Below, in pieces: positions 4,801 to 59,661 of a stretch of DNA of 64,000 bases. The notes beneath the pieces were generated by a model. That model saw only the letters and a program-made list of their open reading frames with translations. It made no database searches and was not told the origin of the DNA. How positions within the stretch are numbered: position 1 is the stretch's first letter; each line of letters starts with the position of its first letter. The position numbers and the translations under genes are program-made. This DNA comes from an uncultured Candidatus Saccharibacteria bacterium (GTDB lineage Bacteria > Patescibacteriota > Minisyncoccia > Minisyncoccales > Staskawiczbacteraceae), in NCBI GenBank assembly GCA_964475855.1, contig CAYZAV010000002.1:51933-115932 (forward strand), given 5' to 3'.

Positions 4801-6879
4801 ATGTCCAATAGAAGCCATCCACTAGAAAAATTGCGTAACTTTGGTATTATCGCCCACATTGATGCGGGCAAGACAACGGTTTCCGAACGGTTGCTTTTTT
4901 ATACCGGAGTTTCCCATAAAATCGGGGAAGTACACGAAGGAGATACCGTCATGGACTGGATGCCCCAGGAACGTGAACGCGGTATTACTATTACCGCCGC
5001 CGCTATTACTATGCAATGGAAGGGCATTCAAATGAACCTGATTGATACCCCTGGCCACATTGATTTTACGGCCGAAGTGCAGCGTTCTCTGCGCGTATTG
5101 GACGGCGCTGTGGTGGTGTTTGACGGAGTTGCCGGTGTTGAGCCGCAATCTGAAACCGTATGGCGCCAAGCTGACAAATACGGCACGCCGCGCATGTGTT
5201 TTATTAATAAATTAGACAGGATGGGGGGAAATTTTGAAAAGTCTTTCCAATCCATTTTAACCAAACTAACCAAAAACGCCGTGGCCATGAATTTGCCTAT
5301 CGGCGAAGAAGAACATCTTTCGGCTATTATTGATTTGCTGAAAATGAAGGCCATTTATTTTGAAGGGGAAAAAGGTGAGATTGTGGTTGAAAAAGAAATT
5401 CCGGCCGATATGTTGGAAAAGGCAAAACTGTGGCGTGAAAAAATGGTTGATAGGATTGCCGGTGAAGATGATGCGTTGACCAATAAATTACTGGAAGGCA
5501 AGGAAATTACGAACGAAGAACTGATGGCCACCATGCGCAAAGCCTGTTTGGCATTTAAATTGGTGCCCGTTTTTTGCGGCAGCGCCTTGAAAAACAAGGG
5601 AACCCAGTTGGTGTTGGACGGTGTGGTGGATTATTTGCCAAGCCCGATGGACATCGGCCAGGTAAAAGGGACTGATCCAAAAACTGGCGCAGAAATTGAA
5701 CGCAAATTCAGTGATGATGAGCCATTTGCCGCCTTGGTATTTAAAGTTGCTACCGACCCGTTTGTGGGACAGTTAACTTTTTTCCGTGTGTACTCGGGAG
5801 TATTAAACAAAGGAACCTATTTGTTAAATTCGGTAACCGGTGAACAAGAGCGCATCAGCCGTATTTTGCGTATGAAGTCCAATAGTCGTGAAGAACTGGA
5901 TGTCATTTACGCCGGGGAAATCGGCGCCACGGTTGGTCTTAAAAATACTGTCACCGGTCATACGTTGTGCGATATGGCAAAGCCCGTGATTTTAGAAAAA
6001 ATCTCTTTCCCTGAACCCGTTATCGCTATGCGCGTGGAACCAAAAACCAAAGCTGACCAGGAAAAGCTGATCATGTCTATCAGAAAGCTAACCCAAGAAG
6101 ATCCGACATTCCGCATCAAAGAAGATATTGAAACAGGCGAAACTATTATTTCTGGTATGGGTGAATTGCACTTGGATATTATTGCTGATAGGCTACGCCG
6201 CGAGTTTAATGTTGATGCAAACTTTGGAAAACCGCAGGTTGCTTATCGTGAAACTATCACTATGGAAGCCGAAGCCGAAGAAAAATATGTCCGCCAGTCT
6301 GGTGGAAAAGGACAGTACGGCCACGTGTGGCTTCGCGTCAAACCAAAGGAACGCGGGGCAGGGTTTGAATTTATTGATGAAATTAAGGGGGGTTCGGTGC
6401 CAAAAGAATTTATCAAGCCGACAGAAAAAGGGGTTATTGAAGCTATGGACAAAGGAGTGGTGGCCGGATACCCATTGGTTGATATTGAAGTTACCTTGTT
6501 TGACGGAAGTTATCACGACGTGGATTCTTCTGAATTTGCCTTTAAAATTGCCGGCTCTATGGCGTTGCAACACGCCGCCAAAGCAGCCAAGCCCGTTATT
6601 TTGGAACCGATCATGAAAACCGAAGTCATTACGCCCGACGGATTCTTCGGCACAGTTATTTCTGATTTATCCAGCCGCCGCGGCAAGATTGAAGAAACCA
6701 AAGAGCGCATGGAAATGAAGGTGATTGACGCTTCTGTTCCATTGAGCGAAATGTTCGGGTACGCAACTGCGCTTCGCAGTTTAACCGAAGGCCGCGCATC
6801 TTTTACGATGCAATTTGATAGATATGAACCGGTGCCGAACAATGTAGCCCAGCAGATTATAGAAGGGAAGGTAAAATAA
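4801..6879 (+). CDS. fusA: Elongation factor G
   Basis: AHIDAGKTT, DTPGH, NKLD GTPase motifs; 692 aa. Confidence 0.98.
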   Translation: MSNRSHPLEKLRNFGIIAHIDAGKTTVSERLLFYTGVSHKIGEVHEGDTVMDWMPQERERGITITAAAITMQWKGIQMNLIDTPGHIDFTAEVQRSLRVLDGAVVVFDGVAGVEPQSETVWRQADKYGTPRMCFINKLDRMGGNFEKSFQSILTKLTKNAVAMNLPIGEEEHLSAIIDLLKMKAIYFEGEKGEIVVEKEIPADMLEKAKLWREKMVDRIAGEDDALTNKLLEGKEITNEELMATMRKACLAFKLVPVFCGSALKNKGTQLVLDGVVDYLPSPMDIGQVKGTDPKTGAEIERKFSDDEPFAALVFKVATDPFVGQLTFFRVYSGVLNKGTYLLNSVTGEQERISRILRMKSNSREELDVIYAGEIGATVGLKNTVTGHTLCDMAKPVILEKISFPEPVIAMRVEPKTKADQEKLIMSIRKLTQEDPTFRIKEDIETGETIISGMGELHLDIIADRLRREFNVDANFGKPQVAYRETITMEAEAEEKYVRQSGGKGQYGHVWLRVKPKERGAGFEFIDEIKGGSVPKEFIKPTEKGVIEAMDKGVVAGYPLVDIEVTLFDGSYHDVDSSEFAFKIAGSMALQHAAKAAKPVILEPIMKTEVITPDGFFGTVISDLSSRRGKIEETKERMEMKVIDASVPLSEMFGYATALRSLTEGRASFTMQFDRYEPVPNNVAQQIIEGKVK

Positions 6880-7836: not shown

Positions 7837-8169
7837 ATGGCAGAATATATTTTCATTATTATTTTAGCTGCAATATTGGTGGTACTGGTAGCTATTTTGT
7901 TTACCCTTTGGATTATGAAGGCAAAAATGGTTGTCGCGCCAACGGGGGGATCACCGCATCTTGATGTCCGAAGGCACACCAAACAGCACAATTTAGAACT
8001 GATTTTGGCCTTGTTTGCCAAATATCCAACGCTTACCAATATGATCATCCGTGAAGAACTGGGCTTTGACGACCGGGTGATTGTAAACTATATGGATGAG
8101 CTGGAAGCTATGGGTAAAGTACGACAAATAGGGGATACGGGCAAATACGTGCACTATGAATTGAGGTAG
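7837..8169 (+). CDS. Hypothetical membrane-anchored winged-helix-like protein
   Basis: N-terminal TM IFIIILAAILVVLVAILFTLWI. The C-terminal ~60 aa has a wHTH-like pattern (ELGFDDRVIVNYMDELEAMGKV). Confidence 0.5.
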   Translation: MAEYIFIIILAAILVVLVAILFTLWIMKAKMVVAPTGGSPHLDVRRHTKQHNLELILALFAKYPTLTNMIIREELGFDDRVIVNYMDELEAMGKVRQIGDTGKYVHYELR

Positions 8170-8184
8170 TTTAACACGCATGCC

Positions 8185-8208
8185 AACACGCACACGGGTG
8201 TGCGTGTT
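8185..8208. repeat. ACGCA/TGCGT hairpin family member
   Basis: aacacgcaca-cggg-tgtgcgtgtt. No T-run follows on the plus strand. Confidence 0.55.
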
Positions 8209-8232
8209 AAAAATGAAGCAAATTTGTCAAAT

Positions 8233-8260
8233 TTGACACGCTTGCTTGGATGGTTACAAT
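8233..8260 (+). promoter_or_regulatory. Promoter within a TTGTCAAATTTGACA palindrome; predicts a leaderless mRNA
   Basis: TTGACA(8233-8238)-16-TACAAT(8255-8260), then 6 nt to ATG 8267. Confidence 0.5.
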
Positions 8261-8266
8261 GGATAT

Positions 8267-8443
8267 ATGAACGTTACTAAATGCGATTTGTGCAAAAAAG
8301 AAATTAAGGAAAGCAGATATGCGGTTACCGTTCGCTTTGATTGGAAAGGTTATGAGTTTTGCAAGAACTGTCGCGTGCCCTTCGTAAAACTATTAGAGAA
8401 ACATAAACTTATTAAAAAAGAAGACAAAAAGCATGAAGAGTAA
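8267..8443 (+). CDS. Small zinc-ribbon protein (CxxC...CxxC)
   Basis: MNVTKCDLCKKE...EFCKNCRVPF. Start set at ATG 8267; the track start at 8246 is TTG. Confidence 0.5.
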   Translation: MNVTKCDLCKKEIKESRYAVTVRFDWKGYEFCKNCRVPFVKLLEKHKLIKKEDKKHEE

Positions 8444-8642
8444 AAAAATCACTATTGAAGATTTGGCTGGGATGATGAAAAGAAGCTTCGATTCTACGGA
8501 TCAGAAAATGGCAGAAGGTTTTAAAAAAGTTGATGAGCGTTTTGATAAGATAGAGCATGAGTTGATTAAAAAGAATTCTGATGAGATTGAAGATCTTAGG
8601 ATACGGATGAAAGTGGTTGAAGATGCCATGGGGATTGAGTAG
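8433..8642 (+). CDS. Hypothetical charged coiled-coil protein (69 aa)
   Basis: Overlaps the upstream stop by 11 nt. No recognisable motif. Confidence 0.4.
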   Translation: MKSKKITIEDLAGMMKRSFDSTDQKMAEGFKKVDERFDKIEHELIKKNSDEIEDLRIRMKVVEDAMGIE

Positions 8643-8772
8643 TTTTCCCACCACAACGCGACCGCAGGTGTTTTTTAGTTGGGGAGTGTTGACTTATTGT
8701 GGTTATTATAATAATATAAAAAGTATTAACAAAAACTAAATAAAATTAATTAATATTTAATTTTTAAAAACT

Positions 8773-9966
8773 ATGGCAGACAAATTTGAGCGAACAAAGC
8801 CTCACGTAAACATTGGTACTATTGGTCACGTGGACCATGGCAAGACCACTACTTCGGCTGCAATCATGCACATCTCAAAGTTGCGTGGTTTGCATTCGTC
8901 CGGGGAAGGGGTTGACCAGATTGACAAGTCACCGGAAGAAAAAGCACGCGGAGTGACAATTTCTATTACCCACTTGGAATGTGAAACGCCAAAGAGGCAC
9001 TATGCTTTGATTGACTGCCCGGGCCACGCTGACTACATTAAGAACATGATTACGGGAGCCGCTCAGATGGATGGTGGTATTTTGGTGGTATCTGCTCCAG
9101 ACGGACCGATGCCTCAGACTAAAGAACACATTTTGCTGGCCAAGCAAGTTGGATTGCCATCCTTGCTGGTGTGGATGAACAAATGTGATATGGTAGATGA
9201 TCCTGAAATTTTGGATTTGGTTGAATCTGAAGTTCGTGAATTATTGAAAAAATATGGATTCCCAGGAGATGAAACCCCGATTATCCGTGGTTCTGCCGTG
9301 AAAGCCCTGGCCGCAACTTCTGTTGATGATGCCGCAGCTAAGCCGATTATTGAATTGCTTGATGCTTGTGATAATTATATTCCTGAACCGGTGCGTGAAT
9401 TAGACAAACCGTTTGCTATGGCTATTGAAGACGTGTTCAGCATTGAAGGCCGCGGAACCGTGGCTACTGGCAGGATTGAACGCGGAATTATCAGGCAAAA
9501 CGACGAAATTGAAGTGGTGGGAATCCGACCAACCCAAAAGTCTGTGGTGGTTTCCGTTGAAATGTTCCAAAAATCTTTGGACGAAGGACGTGCCGGAGAA
9601 AACGTTGGAATTTTATTGCGCGGATTGAAAAAAGAAGACATCGAACGCGGACAGGTGCTGTGCAAACCGGGTTCTATTAATCCTCACACCGAATTTGAAG
9701 CCGAAGTGTATGTGCTTGGCAAAGACGAAGGAGGCCGCCATACCCCATTTTTCACCGGATACAAACCGCAATTATATATCCGCACCTCTGATATTACCGG
9801 AGATGTAACATTGCCTGCCGGAACCGAAATGGTTATGCCGGGCGACACTGCCAATTTAACTGTTAAATTAATTGTTCCGGTTGCTTTGGAAGAAAAAGGA
9901 AAATTTGCCATCCGCGAAGGAGGCAAGACCGTGGGAGCAGGAGTGGTAACAAAGATCATTAAATAA
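8773..9966 (+). CDS. tuf: Elongation factor Tu
   Basis: [18 protein letters not shown]; 397 aa. Confidence 0.98.
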
Positions 9967-9975
9967 TTCCCTATC

Positions 9976-10344
9976 ATGGCAACAGCCAAAGCAGAACCAA
10001 AGAAAAAAGTACCGGCTCATAAAGAGTCTGAGGCTGTTGCTATGCCCAAGCTTCGTATAAAGCTAAAGGCTTACGACCACAAAATTATCGATAGTTCTGT
10101 AAAGCAGATTATCGATATTGCCAATCGGTCAGGAGTTGAGGTGGTTGGCCCGGTGCCACTGCCGACAGAGATTTTGAAATATACCGTAAACCGGTCAACG
10201 TTCGTGCATAAAAACGCCCGGGAGCAATTTGAAATGCGGGTGCATAAACGGGTGATTGATGTAATGAGTCCGAATCCGGAAATCATTGAAGCTCTGCGGG
10301 ACTTGAATCTACCATCGGGTGTAGATATATCTATCAAGATATAG
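9976..10344 (+). CDS. rpsJ: 30S ribosomal protein S10 (possible 22-aa N-terminal extension)
   Basis: RIKLKAYDHKIIDSS core. Alternative start at M23 (nt 10042). Confidence 0.93.
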   Translation: MATAKAEPKKKVPAHKESEAVAMPKLRIKLKAYDHKIIDSSVKQIIDIANRSGVEVVGPVPLPTEILKYTVNRSTFVHKNAREQFEMRVHKRVIDVMSPNPEIIEALRDLNLPSGVDISIKI

Positions 10345-10496
10345 CTACACAAGGGATGGGTCGGAAGGGAAGGATTCCCTTTCGTGTAGGAAAACAGCGA
10401 GCGAAGCGAGCGTTAGAAACCGGGGGTTTCTAAGGAGTGAGCCGGAACCGAAGAGCTAGCCTGAGCGAAGCGAGGGCGATAAGGCGAGCGACGGAG

Positions 10497-10525
10497 TTGA
10501 CATTTCCATTAAAATTTAGTAACCT
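10497..10525 (+). promoter_or_regulatory. Candidate promoter for the rplC operon
   Basis: TTGACA(10497-10502)-17-TAACCT(10520-10525). The -10 is weak (only the TAnnnT positions match). Confidence 0.3.
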
Positions 10526-10596
10526 CTTATTATATTACGACAGTCGTTAACTTTCCCGCCAAGCTTTGGCGAAGTGGGATAACAACATTGCCTCAA

Positions 10597-10617
10597 CTGG
10601 GCATTCGCCCAGTTTTT
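10597..10617 (+). terminator. Terminator-like hairpin in the rplC leader (candidate attenuator)
   Basis: CTGGGC-attc-GCCCAG followed by ttttt, 23 nt upstream of rplC ATG 10640. Confidence 0.5.
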
Positions 10618-10639
10618 CATTACTATTCTAAAAAATCGC

Positions 10640-11245
10640 ATGAAGTTTATCATCGGCAAAAAAATTGAAATGACGCAAATGTTTGATGCAAAAGGCAATG
10701 TTGCTCCAGTGACTTTGGTTGCTGCGGGACCTTGCGTGGTTTTGCAGAAAAAAACAAAAGAGCGCGAAGGATATGATGCCATGCAAATTGGCTTTATAAA
10801 ACTTGAAAAGAAAAACAAGATCAAGAAAACCATGAAGGGCAAGGAGTATCGCCATGTCAAAGAGCAGCGCGCCAGTGGAGCAGATCAGATGGCCGATACA
10901 AATGTGGGTGACCAAATTACCGTTGCAAATTTTAAAGAAGGAGATAGGGTGACGGTTATTGGCATGTCAAAAGGAAAAGGGTTTCAGGGTGGAGTTAAAA
11001 AGCACGGATTTGCCGGGCGTAATGCCAGTCACGGAGCCAAGCACGAACAGCGTCAGATTGGTTCAGTGGGACAACGTTTCCCCCAGCACGTGGTAAAGGG
11101 AAGGAAAATGCCTGGACGCATGGGATATGATCGGGTGACAGTTAAAAACCTGATTATCGCCAAAATTGATACAGAAAATAATATTCTTGCACTGAAGGGG
11201 GCTATTCCTGGCCATCGCGGGACACTTTTGGAAATTAAAGGATAA
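10640..11245 (+). CDS. rplC: 50S ribosomal protein L3
   Basis: GMSKGKGFQGGVKKHGF motif; 201 aa. Confidence 0.96.
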   Translation: MKFIIGKKIEMTQMFDAKGNVAPVTLVAAGPCVVLQKKTKEREGYDAMQIGFIKLEKKNKIKKTMKGKEYRHVKEQRASGADQMADTNVGDQITVANFKEGDRVTVIGMSKGKGFQGGVKKHGFAGRNASHGAKHEQRQIGSVGQRFPQHVVKGRKMPGRMGYDRVTVKNLIIAKIDTENNILALKGAIPGHRGTLLEIKG

Positions 11246-11282
11246 ATACTGGAAATTTCCAATTATCAATTTACAATTTACA

Positions 11283-11912
11283 ATGAAAACGATAGTTTAT
11301 AATCAAGAAGGAAAAGAGGCAGGTGAAGTCACGCTGCCAAAAGAAATATTCCAAGTTCAGATGAACGCTGATTTGGTGCACCAAGTGTTGATTTCTTATT
11401 CGGCCAACAAGCGGCAAGTTTCTGCTCACACTAAAAACCGCGGCGAAGTGCGTGGAGGAGGCCGCAAACCATGGAGGCAGAAAGGAACCGGACGTGCTAG
11501 GGCAGGTTCAACTCGCGGACCGATTTGGAAAGGTGGAGGAGTTTCCGGCGGCCCACGCAATGAAAAAGTATATGCACGTATTATCCCAGTCAAGATGCGT
11601 AAAAAAGCGTTGGCAATGGTATTGTCTGAAAAAGTAAAGAATAATTTATTCGTCATTGTGGATGGCTTGGACATGCAAACGGCAAAAACGAAGTCTATGG
11701 CAACCATGATTAAAAAGTTACCCGTTGCAAATGCCAGCAGATTGGTATTGTATACTACCGGAAAGAACGTATTTTTATCAGCCCGTAATATTGCCAAGAC
11801 AGGCGTAACTGAAATCCGTAATATGAATGTGGCTGATTTGCTCAATTACAAATATGTAGTTTTGAGCAAGGACGAAATTAAAGAAATTGAAAAAATGGTT
11901 AGCATTACATAA
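11283..11912 (+). CDS. rplD: 50S ribosomal protein L4
   Basis: RGGGRKPWRQKGTGRAR motif. Confidence 0.96.
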   Translation: MKTIVYNQEGKEAGEVTLPKEIFQVQMNADLVHQVLISYSANKRQVSAHTKNRGEVRGGGRKPWRQKGTGRARAGSTRGPIWKGGGVSGGPRNEKVYARIIPVKMRKKALAMVLSEKVKNNLFVIVDGLDMQTAKTKSMATMIKKLPVANASRLVLYTTGKNVFLSARNIAKTGVTEIRNMNVADLLNYKYVVLSKDEIKEIEKMVSIT

Positions 11913-34964: not shown

Positions 34965-35882
34965 TTACAGCTTTTCGAAGCCGTCGTTGGTGAGACAACT
35001 GTCTAGGAATGCGATTGCCATATTGCGGCCATCGGTGGCTTGCCTGCCTGCTTTGAAGCGGTTATGCGACCAGAACAAGGGCTTACCGTTTTCTTCTGCG
35101 CAGCAGGTACACCGGTCATTGACCAAGATGCGATTTTCGGGAATGCCGGCGATGCGCAGCATGAACTTGCACAGGGCATAAAGGTCCACGGTCAGATGTC
35201 CCTCGCCAAAGGGACTTTTAGCAGTAGTTTTCTGCAAACACATACGAAGGATAGCGCCGAGGCGGGTTTTTGACGGATCAGAGATTTCCGGCTTGTCGGC
35301 ATATTCGGGCAGCCAACAGCATGGGCCAATGCCATAGCCAATATAGGCGCGGGTTCGGGAAACATTGAAATGTTCCATGGCCGTCATGAGGATATTGGGT
35401 TCCTTGGAGTCTTCCCTGATCAGTGCGCGGTATCCGGCGTGGAGCACCGCCATTCTGTCTTCCTCAACCAAAGCGATGATCGGGCAGTCGGCGTTGAAAA
35501 AAGCAACAGCGTTTTTTTCGCCAAACACGATGCCGCCATCGGCCGGGCTTTTTGTCCGGGTCATGACAATCTCGGTTCTTTCCTCTTGCCCAATGACCAC
35601 GCTGTTATCATAGCAGGCGCCGTCAACCGGGTCATCCTTGGGATCTCCTGGGCCGTAGATGGGAGTCATCACCGTGCGGGCATGGACATCGTCGTCTTGG
35701 CCAAGATACACCACCCGGTTAGTAAAGGCGGGCTTGGGACAAAACAGGGTGTTGGGGCGCAAGGCCAGGAAATCCTGGCGCGCGTGAAACACTTTTTGCA
35801 TGAAATCTTCACGCGAAAGGTTAGTGGGGCTGCAGTTCCATTGCATGCCCACCAGAGACCGGTACAAACGCAAATCTGCCAT
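34965..35882 (-). CDS. YfiH/PgeF (DUF152, Cu-oxidase_4)-like protein, divergent paralog 1
   Basis: FFNADCPIIAL....AVLHAGYRA, GIGPCC, VDLY..C...L...GIPE..I....CTCC....FWSHNR...DGRNMAIAFL follow the YfiH motif order. GGAG SD motif. G+C-rich. Confidence 0.6.
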   Translation of the reverse strand: MADLRLYRSLVGMQWNCSPTNLSREDFMQKVFHARQDFLALRPNTLFCPKPAFTNRVVYLGQDDDVHARTVMTPIYGPGDPKDDPVDGACYDNSVVIGQEERTEIVMTRTKSPADGGIVFGEKNAVAFFNADCPIIALVEEDRMAVLHAGYRALIREDSKEPNILMTAMEHFNVSRTRAYIGYGIGPCCWLPEYADKPEISDPSKTRLGAILRMCLQKTTAKSPFGEGHLTVDLYALCKFMLRIAGIPENRILVNDRCTCCAEENGKPLFWSHNRFKAGRQATDGRNMAIAFLDSCLTNDGFEKL

Positions 35883-36008: not shown

Positions 36009-36812
36009 TTATTCCAGCCAGGCGAGACTGAAACTTCGGCCATCAATTTCTTGTTGATGGGGTTTTTGCAGGGTGCATCCTTTGCGGATGGTGGCTTGGT
36101 AGCGAAGGTGCGACCAGAACACAGGTTGGCCGTTTTCTGTGGCGCAGCAGGTGCATTTGCGATCGATTTGGATGTTTTTTTTGGGTACACCGGCCATGTG
36201 AAGCAGTTGCTCTATTAATTTGTTAAGATCAACTGATACCTGCCCGGCGCCAAACGGACTTTGCTTGGCAGTGTGGCTAAGGCAACTTTCTACCAAGTCT
36301 TTGTGTTGGCAAGGGATTGGCCTATAGATTTCCTCATCTTCAAGGTCGGGAACAAAGCAGCATGGGCCGATACCTCCAAACACCAATACTTTGATTTGTT
36401 TGGGATTGAAGTGTTTCATGGCAGTTTCAATGATGCCATCTTCTTTTTGATCTTGGCGGATCAGGCATCGGTAACCCGTATGCAGCAATGCCAGTCGGTT
36501 TTTTTCATGCAAACAAACCATCGGGCAGTCTGCGTTGAAAAAACCGATTGCCACTTTTGGTACTTGCACCAAAGCCCCATCGGCGGGGTTGTGCGTACGT
36601 ACCAGCCAATTGAGCCAGGCACTGCCATCTTGGGGAAATGAGACAATATTGGTGGTAAAACCTGTCCTGGGTGCATACACCATATGCAGTCTTTCTTGCA
36701 ATTCTCCCACAAAAATCCGTGAACTGTTAGCCAAAAATTGGCTCATGGGCTGAAGCGTAGGATGAAAATTGCCATTCTCTTTGCCAAAAATCCGGCAGCG
36801 TAACGTACTCAT
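36009..36812 (-). CDS. YfiH/PgeF (DUF152)-like protein, divergent paralog 2
   Basis: FFNADCPMVCLHEKNRLALLHTGYRC, GIGPCC, CTCCATENGQPVFWSH. Start at ATG 36812, preceded by AAGGAGtattgca. Confidence 0.6.
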   Translation of the reverse strand: MSTLRCRIFGKENGNFHPTLQPMSQFLANSSRIFVGELQERLHMVYAPRTGFTTNIVSFPQDGSAWLNWLVRTHNPADGALVQVPKVAIGFFNADCPMVCLHEKNRLALLHTGYRCLIRQDQKEDGIIETAMKHFNPKQIKVLVFGGIGPCCFVPDLEDEEIYRPIPCQHKDLVESCLSHTAKQSPFGAGQVSVDLNKLIEQLLHMAGVPKKNIQIDRKCTCCATENGQPVFWSHLRYQATIRKGCTLQKPHQQEIDGRSFSLAWLE

Positions 36813-36939
36813 TGCAATACTCCTTTTAACTTTTTCAAGGAACAAATATTCCAACATATGCGGAATTACTAAAATCGTACCACTTTTTTTAAAAAAAACA
36901 AGCCAAAACAGGGGTTGGGACATGATAGGACAGGCGAGG

Positions 36940-56521: not shown

Positions 56522-56543
56522 AATCACCCGACGGGTGATTTTT
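56522..56543 (+). terminator. Intrinsic terminator
   Basis: AATCACCC-gac-GGGTGATT followed by ttt. Confidence 0.6.
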
Positions 56544-56574
56544 GTTTAGGACTATCTTTGATATAATAAGTGGC

Positions 56575-58094
56575 ATGGAAATCAATTGGTATTCAAAATC
56601 AATTTCTGATGTCTTGGATGGGCTTGTCTCCAGTCAACAAGGGTTGGATGCAAAAGAAGCGGATGCAAGATTGAAGCAGTACGGAAAAAATACTTTGCCG
56701 GAAGGAAAACCTGACGGACTTTTGATTATTTTTTTGCGGCAATTTAAAAGCCCCTTGATCTATATTCTTTTGGCTGCCGGAGTGGTGGTTTTTTCATGGG
56801 AGAAACGGTTGATTCTTTGATTATTTTGGCGGTACTTATCTTTAATGCCGTAGTGGGAACGGTGCAAGAAGGCAGGGCTCAAAACACCCTAATGGCACTA
56901 AAAAAATACACGGTAAAAAAAACCGTTGTGGTGCGTGACGGCAGGGAAATCATTTTGAAGGGCGAAGATATTGTTCCTGGTGACGTTATTATTCTGCAAG
57001 AAGGTGAGAAGATTCCGGCTGATGCGCGGGTTATGGTATCAAATAATCTTAAGGTAGACGAGTCTGCATTTACCGGTGAATCAACTCCGATTCACAAAAT
57101 TGCCGAACCATTGCACGGAGAGCATATATCCGTTGCCGAACAGAAAAATAGCATTTTCAAAGGAACCCACATTGTTTCGGGAAATGGCAGGGCGGTGGTG
57201 GTAGCCACGGGAATTAACACCCAGCTAGGAAAAATAGCTAAGCAAATTTCAGCCATAGATACGGAAATACCACTGAAGGCGAATATCCGTTATTTGTCCC
57301 GCGCTATTATTTTGGTAGTTGCGGTTATGAATATTATACTGCTCGGCACAGGATTATTTTTGGGCAAAGGCTTAAAAGGGGTAGTAGATGCTGTAGAATA
57401 CTTCGCTGGGAATACGAAATTGGTTTCTGACTTAAAGCTTTCTTTTGAGGCAAATAATATTCAGACAGAAACATTGCAGGGGAAGACTCCTATTATTCTT
57501 GCAAGCAAGAAAGAAGTTATCGCTGTCATAATGGTTGCTGATGCAATTAAGCCAGAAGCTATTGAGGCTGTTAGAAATCTGCACAAGCTTGGCATTAAAA
57601 CGGTTATGCTTACAGGAGACAGTAAAAATACCGCCAGTGCTATTGCCAAAGAGGTGGGTATTGATGAAGTGATTGCGGAGGTGCTCCCTGAAGACAAGTT
57701 AAATACCATAAAAGAATTTCAAAAGAAAGGAAGAATAGTTGCTATGGCTGGAGACGGGGTTAACGATGCCCCCGCACTTGCACAGGCTGATGTGGGTATT
57801 GCTATGGGAACAGGAACTGATGTAGCCATAGAAACTGCTGGAATTACGCTTCTTAATGGCGACATTTCAAAATTGGTAAAAGCCTTAAAGCTTTCAAAAA
57901 TGACGATGCGGGGCATTAGGCAAAACTTATTCTGGGCTTTTATTTATAACTTAGTTGGTATTCCTCTTGCCGCAGGTTTATTTTTCCCAATATTCGGTTG
58001 GACACTAAACCCTATTTTTGCTGGTCTTGCCATGGCTTTCTCAAGCGTAAGTGTGGTAAGCAACAGTTTGCGTATTAAAACAAAAAAGCTATAA
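56575..58094 (+). pseudogene. Degraded chimeric P-type ATPase: P2-type N-terminus joined to a P1B (CopA-like) C-terminus, frameshifted, no DKTGT
   Basis: Cation_ATPase_N-like start and TGES A-domain. Frameshift at the T6 run 56789-56794. From about nt 57366 the sequence switches to the CopA-like GIKTVMLTGD...GDGVNDAPALAQADVGIAMG...NLFWAFIYN. No DKTGT or PEGL anywhere. Confidence 0.7.
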
Positions 58095-58582: not shown

Positions 58583-58608
58583 AGCAACCCATCAGGATTT
58601 CGCGGCAA

Positions 58609-58637
58609 TTGACGTGTCTCTTAATATGTTATATAAT
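58609..58637 (+). promoter_or_regulatory. Near-consensus promoter of the 286-aa G+C-rich gene
   Basis: TTGACG(58609-58614)-17-TATAAT(58632-58637). Confidence 0.6.
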
Positions 58638-58729
58638 AGAGCTATTAAACTAAGGTGTTTAATCCCAGTGGTGAGGCTTTCGCCATATGCACTTTGATAC
58701 CAGTACAACTGGTAGAAAGGATGATGACG

Positions 58730-59590
58730 ATGTCCAAGACATTGATCACGTCTCGTGAGGCAAAGGGTCTCGAGATCGCCAACTTCTTTGATGTCGTTTT
58801 GAATGAGGCCGGGCTCGACCAAGAGCGGGGCCAGCGCCTCATTGAGAACGGCGGCGAGTTCCAGGAAGGCCTCAAGGACCTCATCAAGAGGTTTTCGGTC
58901 ACGAATCAGTTCGCCAACGAGGAAGTGGCTTCCGGCTATGGTTATCTCTCGGGTTACAAGCCCAAGAGCGTCGCCAGGCAGGTCAAAATCCTCAATGGGC
59001 TGTTCCCGAATTTGGGTTCTGCCAACAAGAGACTGTTTGGCAAACCGCTTCCCGAAAACGCCGAAGGATTGTTCGCAATCCCGCGGTGGGAGTGCTTTTC
59101 CACAACCTACAACGAGGCAGTGGTAAGGGTACTCGACCAGATCAAGCTGATCTGTGGTGGCAAGTTCTACAACTACCGCGAAAACCAGCTCGGTCCAAAG
59201 TTTCTCCGCCAGCACGCCAAAACCGTCAAGGCATTCAGTATGCTGGGCGAACAGCAGACGGGCTACGAGATTCTCGTGGTTGCCTGTCAGTTCGGCCTTC
59301 GGCACCGTGGACGCAGTGTCCGCCGGGCCCGCGAAGTCATGAACTCTTTGGAGTTCGGTCTCGGCGCTTTCGCCAACGGCTGCATGATTCTGACCCACCC
59401 GGAACGCCTCCAGTACTACGACGATCTTTGGATCGATTGTGCCGGTGATGAGTTTTCCGATGGCGGTGTTGGTTCCTTCGGCCACGCTCCGTGCTTCAGG
59501 TTCTATGGCGGCAAGGTCCTCTTCGACTCGAGGCCTCTCGGCGCTGCCTTCGGCAACTGTGGTTCGTCGTCTGGTCTGCTCTCGCAGTAA
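58730..59590 (+). CDS. Hypothetical protein, strongly G+C-rich cassette (286 aa from ATG 58730; GTG 58655 is an alternative)
   Basis: GAAAGGatgatgacgATG. Conserved-looking blocks GLFAIPRWE, QFGLRHRGRSVRRAREVM, ILTHPERLQYYDDLWIDCAGDEF. No family recognised. Confidence 0.6.
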   Translation: MSKTLITSREAKGLEIANFFDVVLNEAGLDQERGQRLIENGGEFQEGLKDLIKRFSVTNQFANEEVASGYGYLSGYKPKSVARQVKILNGLFPNLGSANKRLFGKPLPENAEGLFAIPRWECFSTTYNEAVVRVLDQIKLICGGKFYNYRENQLGPKFLRQHAKTVKAFSMLGEQQTGYEILVVACQFGLRHRGRSVRRAREVMNSLEFGLGAFANGCMILTHPERLQYYDDLWIDCAGDEFSDGGVGSFGHAPCFRFYGGKVLFDSRPLGAAFGNCGSSSGLLSQ

Positions 59591-59612
59591 CCTTGAAATT
59601 TGTTCGTGGTAT

Positions 59613-59651
59613 ATGGCATTGTTTGTTTCACAAACAATGCCATCTTTTTTT
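59613..59651 (+). terminator. Strong intrinsic terminator
   Basis: ATGGCATTGTTTG-tttca-CAAACAATGCCAT followed by ctttttttt. Confidence 0.75.
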
Positions 59652-59661
59652 ATAGAAAAAA

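Follow-up and report, generated by a model that had tools for sequence, protein, structure and literature searches.

The 64-kb window (the whole stretch of DNA analysed here) contains a gene set apart from its neighbours by base composition, and the locus raises the question of whether that gene is a recent arrival, a misjoined piece of another genome, or a long-standing resident whose composition has some other source. Our reading, which we hold to be likely as a whole, is that it is a copy of a DGR target that lacks a DGR and is probably frozen, that was inherited vertically, and that encodes, under its own promoter, a binding protein of fixed specificity. The features of the locus are as follows.

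58592..59485, minus strand: stop-free antisense frame of 297 aa from the ORF list; not a gene (homology is all in the sense frame)
58609..58637, plus strand: predicted sigma-70-like promoter, TTGACG-17-TATAAT, 11/12 match
58638..58729, plus strand: truncated 5′ leader of ~90 nt, from the family leader alignment and covariance model
58644-58663: 7-bp stub hairpin ATTAAAC-taaggt-GTTTAAT, in place of the 24-bp P1 of the family
58698-58714: P2-equivalent hairpin taccagt-aca-actggta
58715-58720: RBS GAAAGG, followed by the conserved spacer ATGATGACG
58730..59590, plus strand: CDS of 286 aa, member of a Patescibacteria-wide DGR variable-protein family (ORF call and homology)
59456..59584, plus strand: VR equivalent, codons S243-S285, SDGGVGSFGHAPCFRFYGGKVLFDSRPLGAAFGNCGSSSGLLS, then Q286 and stop (positional homology to TR-paired VRs)
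59591..59612, plus strand: vestige (CCTTGAA...) of the family nested inverted repeat (family comparison)
59613..59652, plus strand: predicted intrinsic terminator with a 14-bp AT-rich stem (59613-59643), TTC loop and T-run CTTTTTTTAT

The gene has a GC content of 0.566 and a GC3 of 0.718, against a GC content of 0.427 for the 64-kb window; the excess over the surrounding genes is 14 points in GC and ~27-30 points in GC3, and composition changes abruptly at both gene ends. An earlier note on this DNA had called it the most G+C-rich gene of the window, which is correct among long ORFs (the second-ranked, 34965..35882 on the minus strand, has 0.541), and its figure of 40 G+C in the 60 nt at 58801-58860 is exact. 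The 297-aa antisense shadow ORF that it reported is also present. We regard this frame as a by-product of the sense frame, because GC3 of the latter is 72% and the thousands of homologs are found in the sense frame only. Other in-frame ATGs occur at 58721 and 58724; the start was placed at 58730 because RBS spacing favours it and because it matches the AGGAGG-ATGACG-ATG block of the family.

The predicted protein consists of an N-terminal three-helix domain (~residues 10-55), the motif EEVxSxYGYLSGYxPK, an alpha/beta core in which five helices alternate with strands, and a C-terminal beta-sheet (AF2 model, pLDDT 95.6, pTM 0.89). Homologs number 3,228 at E<=1e-3, the best of them full-length matches of 55-64% identity, and the family comprises >3,200 clusters at 90% identity or 1,616 at 50% identity. 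Almost all come from low-GC Patescibacteria; relatives also occur on IMG/VR contigs and beside recombinases and methyltransferases. The blocks singled out in the earlier note as conserved-looking are indeed conserved across the family, and the family alignment has numerous invariant polar residues in the non-variable core. Assignment to a housekeeping family common across the clade had been named as a refuting outcome; the family does extend throughout the Patescibacteria, but as an accessory family of DGR targets.

The description as an uncharacterized globular protein stands; no profile library, PDB sequence search or Foldseek run assigns it to a family. The window protein has no match among Pfam, NCBIfam, PHROGs and PADLOC profiles or PDB sequences; Pfam gave nothing significant at E<=1 for 48 close family members and zero matches at E<=0.001 for 150 diverse ones (FGE-sulfatase and DUF1566 included), and PDB profile searches with two family alignments (A1 and A6) found no match. 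With Foldseek, a first model had no significant match in PDB or BFVD, and for a second (pLDDT 95.6) the best PDB match had E=0.7 and no solved DGR variable protein was matched. C-type-lectin-like domains are enriched among these PDB matches, none of them significant, at ranks 2, 3, 5, 7, 8, 13, 14, 21, 23, 44 and 46; the weak matches include EMS16, BDCA2, ZK002, MCL and rhodocetin. The canonical C-type-lectin (CLec) fold has fewer helices than the predicted five-helix core of the window protein.

Gene neighbourhoods were compared in a set of 92 related loci. RT is present in 40 and Avd in 47, and about half of the 92 targets lie beside a CPR-type DGR cassette, which when complete runs in the order target, nested inverted repeat, ~130-nt TR (350-430 nt downstream), inverted avd and RT. 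At locus L005, where bAvd and RVT_1 genes come next after the homolog (P0059), the arrangement is as follows.

8001-8855: target, the family homolog
8718-8846: VR, pairing with the TR, 20/20 mismatches at TR adenines
9223-9351: TR, a repeat of the target 3′ end
9414-9758, minus strand: avd, inverted, between TR and RT
9759-10814, plus strand: RT (RVT_1)

A ~130-nt TR with adenine-specific mismatches (e.g. 29/29, 24/24, 22/22) is present in all RT-linked single-target loci, and TR-paired VRs of 129-131 nt, with at least 85% adenine-specific mismatches, were found in 36 related loci; homologs whose 3′ ends pair with TRs include, besides P0059, those of L011, L012 and L017. At loci with two tandem targets, the repeat search paired both VR copies with each other instead of with a TR. 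In DGRs, RT and Avd copy the TR RNA into adenine-mutagenized cDNA, which then replaces the VR, and from this established mechanism the adenine-only differences between TR and VR point to VR replacement by such cDNA. Comparison of TR and VR translations gives ~22 mutable codons on a conserved scaffold, and in complete cassettes VR replacement would rewrite these codons on the C-terminal beta-sheet. Judged from the adenine-specific TR/VR pairs in relatives, the family is one of DGR target proteins. The label 'enzyme-like' in the earlier note has to be dropped, both because the relatives are demonstrable DGR targets and because one of the blocks on which it was based, APCFRFYGGKVLFD, falls inside the variable region. 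Not every member is accompanied by a cassette: among the 33 loci flanked on either side by 8 kb or more, 15 are complete, 2 partial and 16 without DGR parts.

The window copy is of this last kind. No second copy of 59300-59600, such as a TR, occurs anywhere in the 64-kb window; tblastn found no RT or Avd in the window, and neither did HMMs (30 RTs, 37 Avds) from -58.7 kb to +10 kb, which gave E=1e-182 and 4e-57 for the L005 controls. Called downstream genes contain no RVT domain, a scan of the window for the YxDD motif of any RT gave one irrelevant ORF, and a cassette in the order target-TR-inverted avd-RT (B3 order) is absent from the window. The search span was the window plus 10 kb downstream, ~74 kb of the 404-kb contig.

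The VR equivalent of the window copy retains the scaffold residues AP-F-F-G-V-F...GS-S and, in an intact reading frame, the conserved coding end GSSSGLLSQ, which is the TR/VR homology boundary. Alignment with family TRs shows differences at 62-71% of TR-A positions and 12-33% of the rest, an excess that is confounded, since the same codons are variable across the family anyway. We infer that this VR still bears scars of past adenine mutagenesis and is probably frozen now. Over 3-15 kb that take in the VR, four assemblies made from different samples or runs agree at 100% identity; this carries little weight for the VR, as the region is clonal and without SNPs, consensus assembly can hide minority variants, and the look-up was by exact match, which favours identical copies. 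All members of the 90%-identity cluster are likewise identical, with no VR variants (a comparison of low power), and a search for strain variants in JGI metagenomes with an exact 35-mer anchor gave no matches.

Upstream, the predicted promoter at 58609-58637, rightly described before as near-consensus, is the best such site in 56-62 kb, a region in which the total of promoter-like sites equals the shuffle expectation; family loci have a -35/-10 pair at the equivalent position upstream of their leaders. Of the 29 pairs in the family leader, 22 have compensatory changes, and in ~50 loci a covariance model built here (R1) gives 50-116 bits to the sequence upstream of the target. The window leader scores 15.4 bits, aligned via its RBS-proximal part, with P1 collapsed and P2 and the RBS block kept. 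The palindrome noted earlier before the start codon is the P2 equivalent, directly followed by the RBS; the proposed ~90-nt structured leader does bear hairpins, but it is what truncation has left of a longer family leader with covariation. In the window and eight loci, neither the leader nor the 3′ element had an Rfam match. A second leader-associated protein (loci L079 and L013) was considered as a distant relative or second target and rejected: hhalign aligned only a 20-residue motif at a probability of 4%, and no TR matches its 3′ end.

Downstream of the VR, the family has a three-tier nested repeat of CTTGA-like units, with 14 pairs, 83.6% of cells paired and 9 pairs with double changes; its score was reached by 0/500 shuffles. 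Other loci have a median of 3.5-4 CYYGR units, the window vestige a single one. In BPP-1, losing the hairpin that follows the VR lowers tropism switching >1000-fold (PMC3240598), and by analogy the nested inverted repeat may be the target-recognition element of this family. A canonical GC-rich hairpin with a GRNA loop was rejected as the post-VR signal of the family, being found under strict criteria at only 8/38 DGR-linked loci. The predicted terminator, which the earlier note called strong, has a 14-bp stem and a T-run and stands in the place of the family post-VR element; it is not homologous to that element and, being AT-rich, is unlike the GC-rich GRNA-loop hairpins of characterized DGR targets (PMC3240598).

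The base composition that first marked the gene had been taken to hint at a foreign source or a chimera. Instead, it is a family-wide hallmark of the target gene: 87/88 loci have the offset, whatever the host GC, and the adjacent RT and avd are host-like (0.41 and 0.40, against 0.60 for the target and 0.43 for flanks). The locus is, moreover, syntenic with relatives. An adenine-only footprint was rejected as the cause of the GC-richness, since third positions are low in both A (0.11) and T (0.16). The GC3 enrichment is specific to the target and still seen in syntenic copies orphaned long ago; perhaps it stems from a process particular to the gene, such as biased gene conversion or selection for nucleic-acid structure tied to retrohoming, or from some quite different process.

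The gene order RF1-FtsE-FtsX...target...FtsZ is shared by the window and loci L009 and L014. Between the window and L009 the target is 57% identical, and its neighbours 46-61%. L009 has no RT but an Avd fragment and a TR, whose mismatches are at adenines in 17/17 cases, and L014 has no DGR parts, with the leader and inverted repeat kept. Position and divergence relative to these syntenic genomes suggest, at the level of sequence comparison, vertical inheritance from a cassette-bearing ancestor followed by stepwise decay. The ancestor would have had the full cassette at this same site, and the gene left in the window, under a sigma-70-type promoter of its own, would give a soluble, putative binding protein of fixed specificity in the cytoplasm.

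The gene could instead be a remote target that is still active, served in trans by RT, Avd and TR from elsewhere in the genome. Action of DGR components in trans is possible, and some lineages are documented to have remote targets (PMC5758913); the inspected ~74 kb is a part of the contig, the reading frame and VR 3′ end are intact, and the VR is exactly as adenine-poor as that of L005, the one DGR-linked locus checked (10/129 in each). We consider continued activity unlikely all the same, given that the window lacks the covarying inverted repeat with which most family loci follow the VR, that loss of the post-VR hairpin has the severe effect cited above in BPP-1, that the four assemblies have no VR differences among them, and that syntenic L009 shows a cassette decaying in place.

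Recent horizontal transfer, with the gene an unknown enzyme on a foreign island, its GC that of the donor and the DGR link of its relatives incidental, is in our judgement very improbable. It would fit the compositional excess, the possession of a promoter and terminator, the relatives on IMG/VR contigs and near recombinases and methyltransferases, and the many invariant polar residues of the core; yet the GC offset recurs at nearly every locus and in the target gene only, low-GC Patescibacteria contain essentially the whole family, so that no GC-rich donor pool is visible, synteny together with divergence equal to that of housekeeping neighbours indicates long residence, and the TR/VR evidence is direct. 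The abrupt compositional change at both gene ends could also arise if a GC-rich fragment of another organism had been joined to an AT-rich contig, as the earlier note allowed for in calling for a check of both junctions. The chance of such an artefact is negligible: the contig is not chimeric, because four independently assembled contigs are 100% identical across the gene and both junctions; furthermore, what precedes the CDS without a break (promoter, leader remnant, RBS block) is typical of the family, and nearly all family loci have the same composition step.

Among known systems, 90% of CPR DGRs are reported as the 'B3' TR-(avd)-RT type (PMC5758913). The relatives share this cassette with the CPR DGR targets of clade 2 (PMC8144416) and of the B3/'unknown VR' set (PMC5758913), and the resemblance extends to a VR at the extreme C-terminus, adenine-specific TR/VR differences, a usually single adjacent target, and a protein that lacks transmembrane segments, a signal peptide and any recognisable domain; the family may itself be among the published UVR classes or target clusters (PMC5758913, PMC8144416). 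Unlike these systems, the window copy has no TR, avd, RT or post-VR inverted repeat, and the gene is probably best described as a DGR-less, frozen member of an already known kind of system. With the Mtd DGR of BPP-1 (PMC3240598) the relatives share a 3′-terminal VR, an adenine-specific TR, Avd and RT, and an inverted repeat downstream of the VR. The differences are that the family avd, inverted, stands between TR and RT, that the family follows its VR with a nested repeat in three tiers rather than with one GC-rich stem bearing a GRNA loop, and that the protein, unrelated to Mtd in sequence and without a Foldseek match to it, is small and putatively cytoplasmic, whereas Mtd is the tip of a phage tail fibre. 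As in the CLec variable proteins TvpA, AvpA and TaqVP (PMC5006420, PMC6328139), the variable residues are C-terminal in a compact domain.

Roux et al. 2021 (PMC8144416) raised the question whether the targets in CPR are new variants of the C-type lectin or of some other kind, and a confident structure model without a solved neighbour bears on it. We put forward only tentatively, and as somewhat doubtful, the idea that the family is a new, non-C-type-lectin DGR scaffold: a cytoplasmic alpha/beta protein with its own leader RNA and a nested-repeat homing signal, about half of whose copies are retained without the retroelement. If true, this would imply a conserved core function, for instance that of a sensor or immunity receptor inside the cell, with a specificity that may be fixed or remain evolvable. 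In the DGR literature cited here we found no mention of the GC3 bias limited to the target, the covarying 5′ leader RNA, the three-tier repeat or the ~50% orphan fraction.

Thousands of 'hypothetical proteins' of Patescibacteria can now be labelled as a DGR variable-protein family. The family splits about evenly into DGR-linked and DGR-less copies, and the latter are missed by design in DGR surveys that start from the RT. Its members form a natural series at one syntenic site, from the complete cassette through TR with an avd fragment and a bare target with cis elements to a target without them, and this series lets one ask what becomes of a hypervariable protein after its diversification stops.

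The open reading frame at 58730-59590 (+) is a real gene whose product is a CPR-type variable protein of a diversity-generating retroelement (DGR), a known kind of system. The earlier note described its promoter, hairpin, terminator and composition accurately, and the 40/60 G+C counted there at 58801-58860 is exact. The gene tops the long ORFs of the window in GC (0.566, with GC3 0.718; whole window, 0.427), followed by 34965-35882 (-) at 0.541. The gene and its signals are as follows.

58609-58637: promoter-like TTGACG-17-TATAAT, matching 11/12 consensus positions
58638-58729: remnant of the family leader
58644-58663: 7-bp stub in the leader
58698-58714: palindrome taccagt-aca-actggta
58715-58720: GAAAGG, followed by ATGATGACG-ATG
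58730-59590 (+): target ORF, 286 aa
59456-59584: variable region (VR), codons S243-S285, placed by alignment
59613-59643: 14-bp stem and T-run, 3′ of the stop codon

The promoter-like site is the best of its kind in 56-62 kb, where the count of such sites equals the shuffle expectation. The 297-aa stop-free antisense frame over the target is present as described, but homology is entirely to the sense frame, whose high GC produces the antisense frame as a by-product. Elsewhere in the window, 34965-35882 (GC3 0.641) and 36009-36923 (-) (GC 0.459) are adjacent paralogous Cu-oxidase_4 genes (PF02578, YfiH-like). At 56542-58094 (+) a P-type ATPase is apparently split and shortened: a 92-aa ORF (Cation_ATPase_N) overlaps an out-of-frame 432-aa ORF (E1-E2_ATPase and HAD domains), with the same sequence in independent assemblies. 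Its total is far below typical P-type ATPase size, and it is possibly a degraded gene.

The window protein had no match in Pfam, NCBIfam, PHROGs, PADLOC or PDB sequences, and 0/150 diverse family representatives matched any Pfam family. A word-indexed protein search returned 3,228 homologs at E<=1e-3; the best 120 of these, none of them named, are 41-64% identical, those of ~285 aa with a single domain being 55-64% identical. An exhaustive search gave 1,616 clusters at 50% identity, of which 524 were at E<=1e-30. Shorter members (~235 aa) consist of the core only, and longer ones (476-484 aa) carry the core in tandem duplicate, beginning at the motif EE(V/L)xSxYxYLSGY. Fused two-core proteins include P0003, P0004, P0093 and P0103, and two tandem target genes occur in loci L033, L035, L066, L073 and L076. 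When one genome per species was scanned, 188 loci encoding a relative were found, and the 80 kept are nearly all from Patescibacteria (Paceibacterota, Nomurabacteria, Kaiserbacteria, Andersenbacteria, Berkelbacteria, Saccharibacteria-labelled MAGs and others). The few short contigs with other labels that carry the gene are probably misbinned. Five IMG/VR contigs also carry it.

In related locus L005 the target homolog (8001-8855) is followed by an opposite-strand bAvd gene and an RVT_1 reverse transcriptase (RT). The last 129 nt of this target (8718-8846) are repeated at 9223-9351 with 84% identity, and each of the 20 mismatches coincides with an adenine in the downstream copy (17 A→G, 2 A→T and 1 A→C). 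Such confinement to adenines is the signature of DGR mutagenic retrohoming, and it marks the family as a DGR target; the enzyme-like protein proposed earlier finds no support. By tblastn with the L005 proteins, RT was found in 40/92 and Avd in 47/92 of the related loci fetched by then. Every RT-linked locus with a single target has a template repeat (TR) of ~130 nt with adenine-specific mismatches (29/29 in L023, 24/24 in both L041 and L089, 22/22 in L017); at loci with two tandem targets the repeat search matched the two VR copies to each other. The TR lies 350-430 nt 3′ of the target stop, or ~1,480 nt upstream where the cassette is inverted. The arrangement target–TR–(avd inverted)–RT corresponds to the 'B3' architecture; according to Wu et al. 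(PMC5758913), 90% of CPR DGRs have it and it is hardly seen elsewhere. The TR encodes a conserved template, PDADGDFSNAPYFNFNDGKVKFDTNWVDNANDNYGSASGFLPK, with ~22 adenine-containing codons; VRs differ at these and retain the scaffold AP-F-F-G-V-F…GS-S. Orphans, i.e. target loci without any DGR part, are common: among the 33 loci flanked by 8 kb or more on both sides, 15 were complete, 2 partial and 16 orphan.

The surroundings of the complete DGR of L005 (3775-15471) contain ParB-methyltransferase, N6_N4 methyltransferase, ResIII helicase and serine-recombinase genes, a neighbourhood which suggests that mobile elements carry some of the cassettes. In L024, a DGR-complete locus, a Rfam LOOT RNA (RF03000, 79.5 bits) is found at 5639-5762 (+), ~180 nt 3′ of the target stop. 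L054 has a TR-like repeat with 18/26 mismatches from A, and neither RT nor Avd.

A structure model from 48 close homologs was mediocre (pLDDT 78.6), while that from the 150 diverse representatives was very confident (pLDDT 95.6, pTM 0.89). The predicted fold has a three-helix domain at the N-terminus and an alpha/beta core; the VR lies on a sheet at the C-terminus, with strands at 252-259, 262-269 and 277-283. Foldseek searches of PDB and BFVD returned nothing significant (best E in PDB 0.7), and solved DGR variable proteins were absent from the matches. C-type-lectin-like domains recur among the weak matches, which also include a fibre-tip domain from Bdellovibrio (8oks_B, TMt 0.55); this is a faint hint of a very divergent CLec-like substructure, not an assignment. 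Reading the N-terminus by eye revealed no signal peptide or hydrophobic segment.

The window VR keeps the scaffold and ends in Q, as VRs do, where TRs have K; adenines make up 10 of its 129 nt. Relative to the TRs of the family, 62-71% of the TR-adenine positions are changed in it and only 12-33% of the others, a pattern that agrees with past diversification from a family-type template, although those codons vary in the family anyway. The 64-kb window holds no second copy of the target 3′ end, no RT or Avd by tblastn, and no RVT domain in the genes called downstream of the target. With HMMs of 30 family RTs and 37 Avds, neither the window nor the sequence L093, which reaches 10 kb further downstream, gave a match in six-frame translation (best E 0.47); L005, the positive control, scored E=1e-182 and 4e-57.

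Upstream of the start codon most loci have a leader of ~130 nt (about 128), made up of 'GTTCTTTGA', a long stem for which compensated variants occur (ATGAGACGAGC…GCTCGTCTCAT), a short hairpin and AAGGAGG-ATGACG-ATG. Examples are:

L008 4356-4481: family leader
L014 9876-10003: family leader
L009 9875-10003: family leader

RNAalifold gave 29 pairs, with compensatory double changes in 22/29. Our covariance model scores 50-116 bits immediately 5′ of the target in about 50 loci (26/35 complete, 3/4 partial, 18/39 orphan); Rfam 15 has no entry for this leader, which may be a cis-regulatory element. The window leader scores 15.4 bits: the stub replaces a 24-bp family stem, and the palindrome sits at the position of the short hairpin. 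The same motif precedes a different protein of ~255 aa in L079 (5789-6577 (-), 73.8 bits) and L013 (11696-12451 (+), 41.9 bits). These two proteins are 60% identical to each other. Their resemblance to the target family is limited to a 20-residue 'KRAREIMGRNFFG' motif and an N-terminal helix that looks similar by eye, and no TR matches their 3′ ends.

In most loci, whether DGR-linked or orphan, the first ~75 nt after the stop contain a covarying nested inverted repeat in three tiers, built of CTTGA-like units, e.g. L024 5457-5531, GAATTC-TT-GGATC-TTTTGAC…GTC…GATCC-TT-GAATTC. Over 14 pairs, 83.6% of cells are paired, with double changes at 9 pairs; 0/500 shuffles reached the observed score, and pairing is lost on register shift. 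Efficient retrohoming in BPP-1 requires an inverted repeat just after the VR (PMC3240598), and by analogy the nested repeat is likely a homing signal. The window retains only 'CCTTGAA', then a plain AT-rich terminator. Many loci have a hairpin with 'GGGTTATCCACA' ~70-100 nt after the stop (21/38 DGR-linked loci, 14/38 orphans), containing a perfect DnaA-box-like TTATCCACA.

The order RF1-FtsE-FtsX…target…FtsZ is common to the window, L009 (the same as L001-L004) and L014. The window and L009 are 57% identical over the target and 46-61% over its neighbours, as vertical inheritance would give. L009 has, at 10001-11609, a target, a TR whose mismatches are all at adenines (17/17) and an Avd fragment of 50 aa, with no RT within 10 kb; L014 keeps the leader and inverted repeat and has no DGR part. 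The three look like stages of in-place DGR decay, the window having also lost the leader stem and inverted repeat. Contigs from four different samples or runs match the window at 100% identity for 3-15 kb, a stretch that takes in the VR and both junctions; this rules out a chimeric contig. They show no VR heterogeneity at the consensus level, the 90%-identity cluster of the protein contains start-codon variants only, and JGI metagenomes yielded no copy of the gene. VR identity at the assembly-consensus level is only moderate evidence for inactivity. The window copy is DGR-less and probably frozen, with degraded cis elements.

A foreign origin, also raised earlier, is not supported: the GC bias is family-wide and the copy is syntenic with its relatives. 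Target GC exceeds that of the flanks by >5 points in 87/88 loci; in the 37 RT-linked loci the target averages 0.60, RT 0.41, Avd 0.40 and the flanks 0.43. With the VR excluded, third positions of the target have A 0.11, C 0.42, G 0.32 and T 0.16, versus A 0.24, C 0.21, G 0.22 and T 0.33 in RT genes. The bias is thus target-gene-specific and not adenine-only. Since it is equally strong in orphans (0.58 vs 0.42) and is kept in syntenic copies whose divergence equals that of housekeeping genes, it is not explained by a recent transfer from a GC-rich donor. It is the most puzzling feature of the family. This target-specific GC3 bias merits specialist attention, as do the leader RNA, the nested repeat after the VR, the ~50% share of orphans and the unmatched fold.
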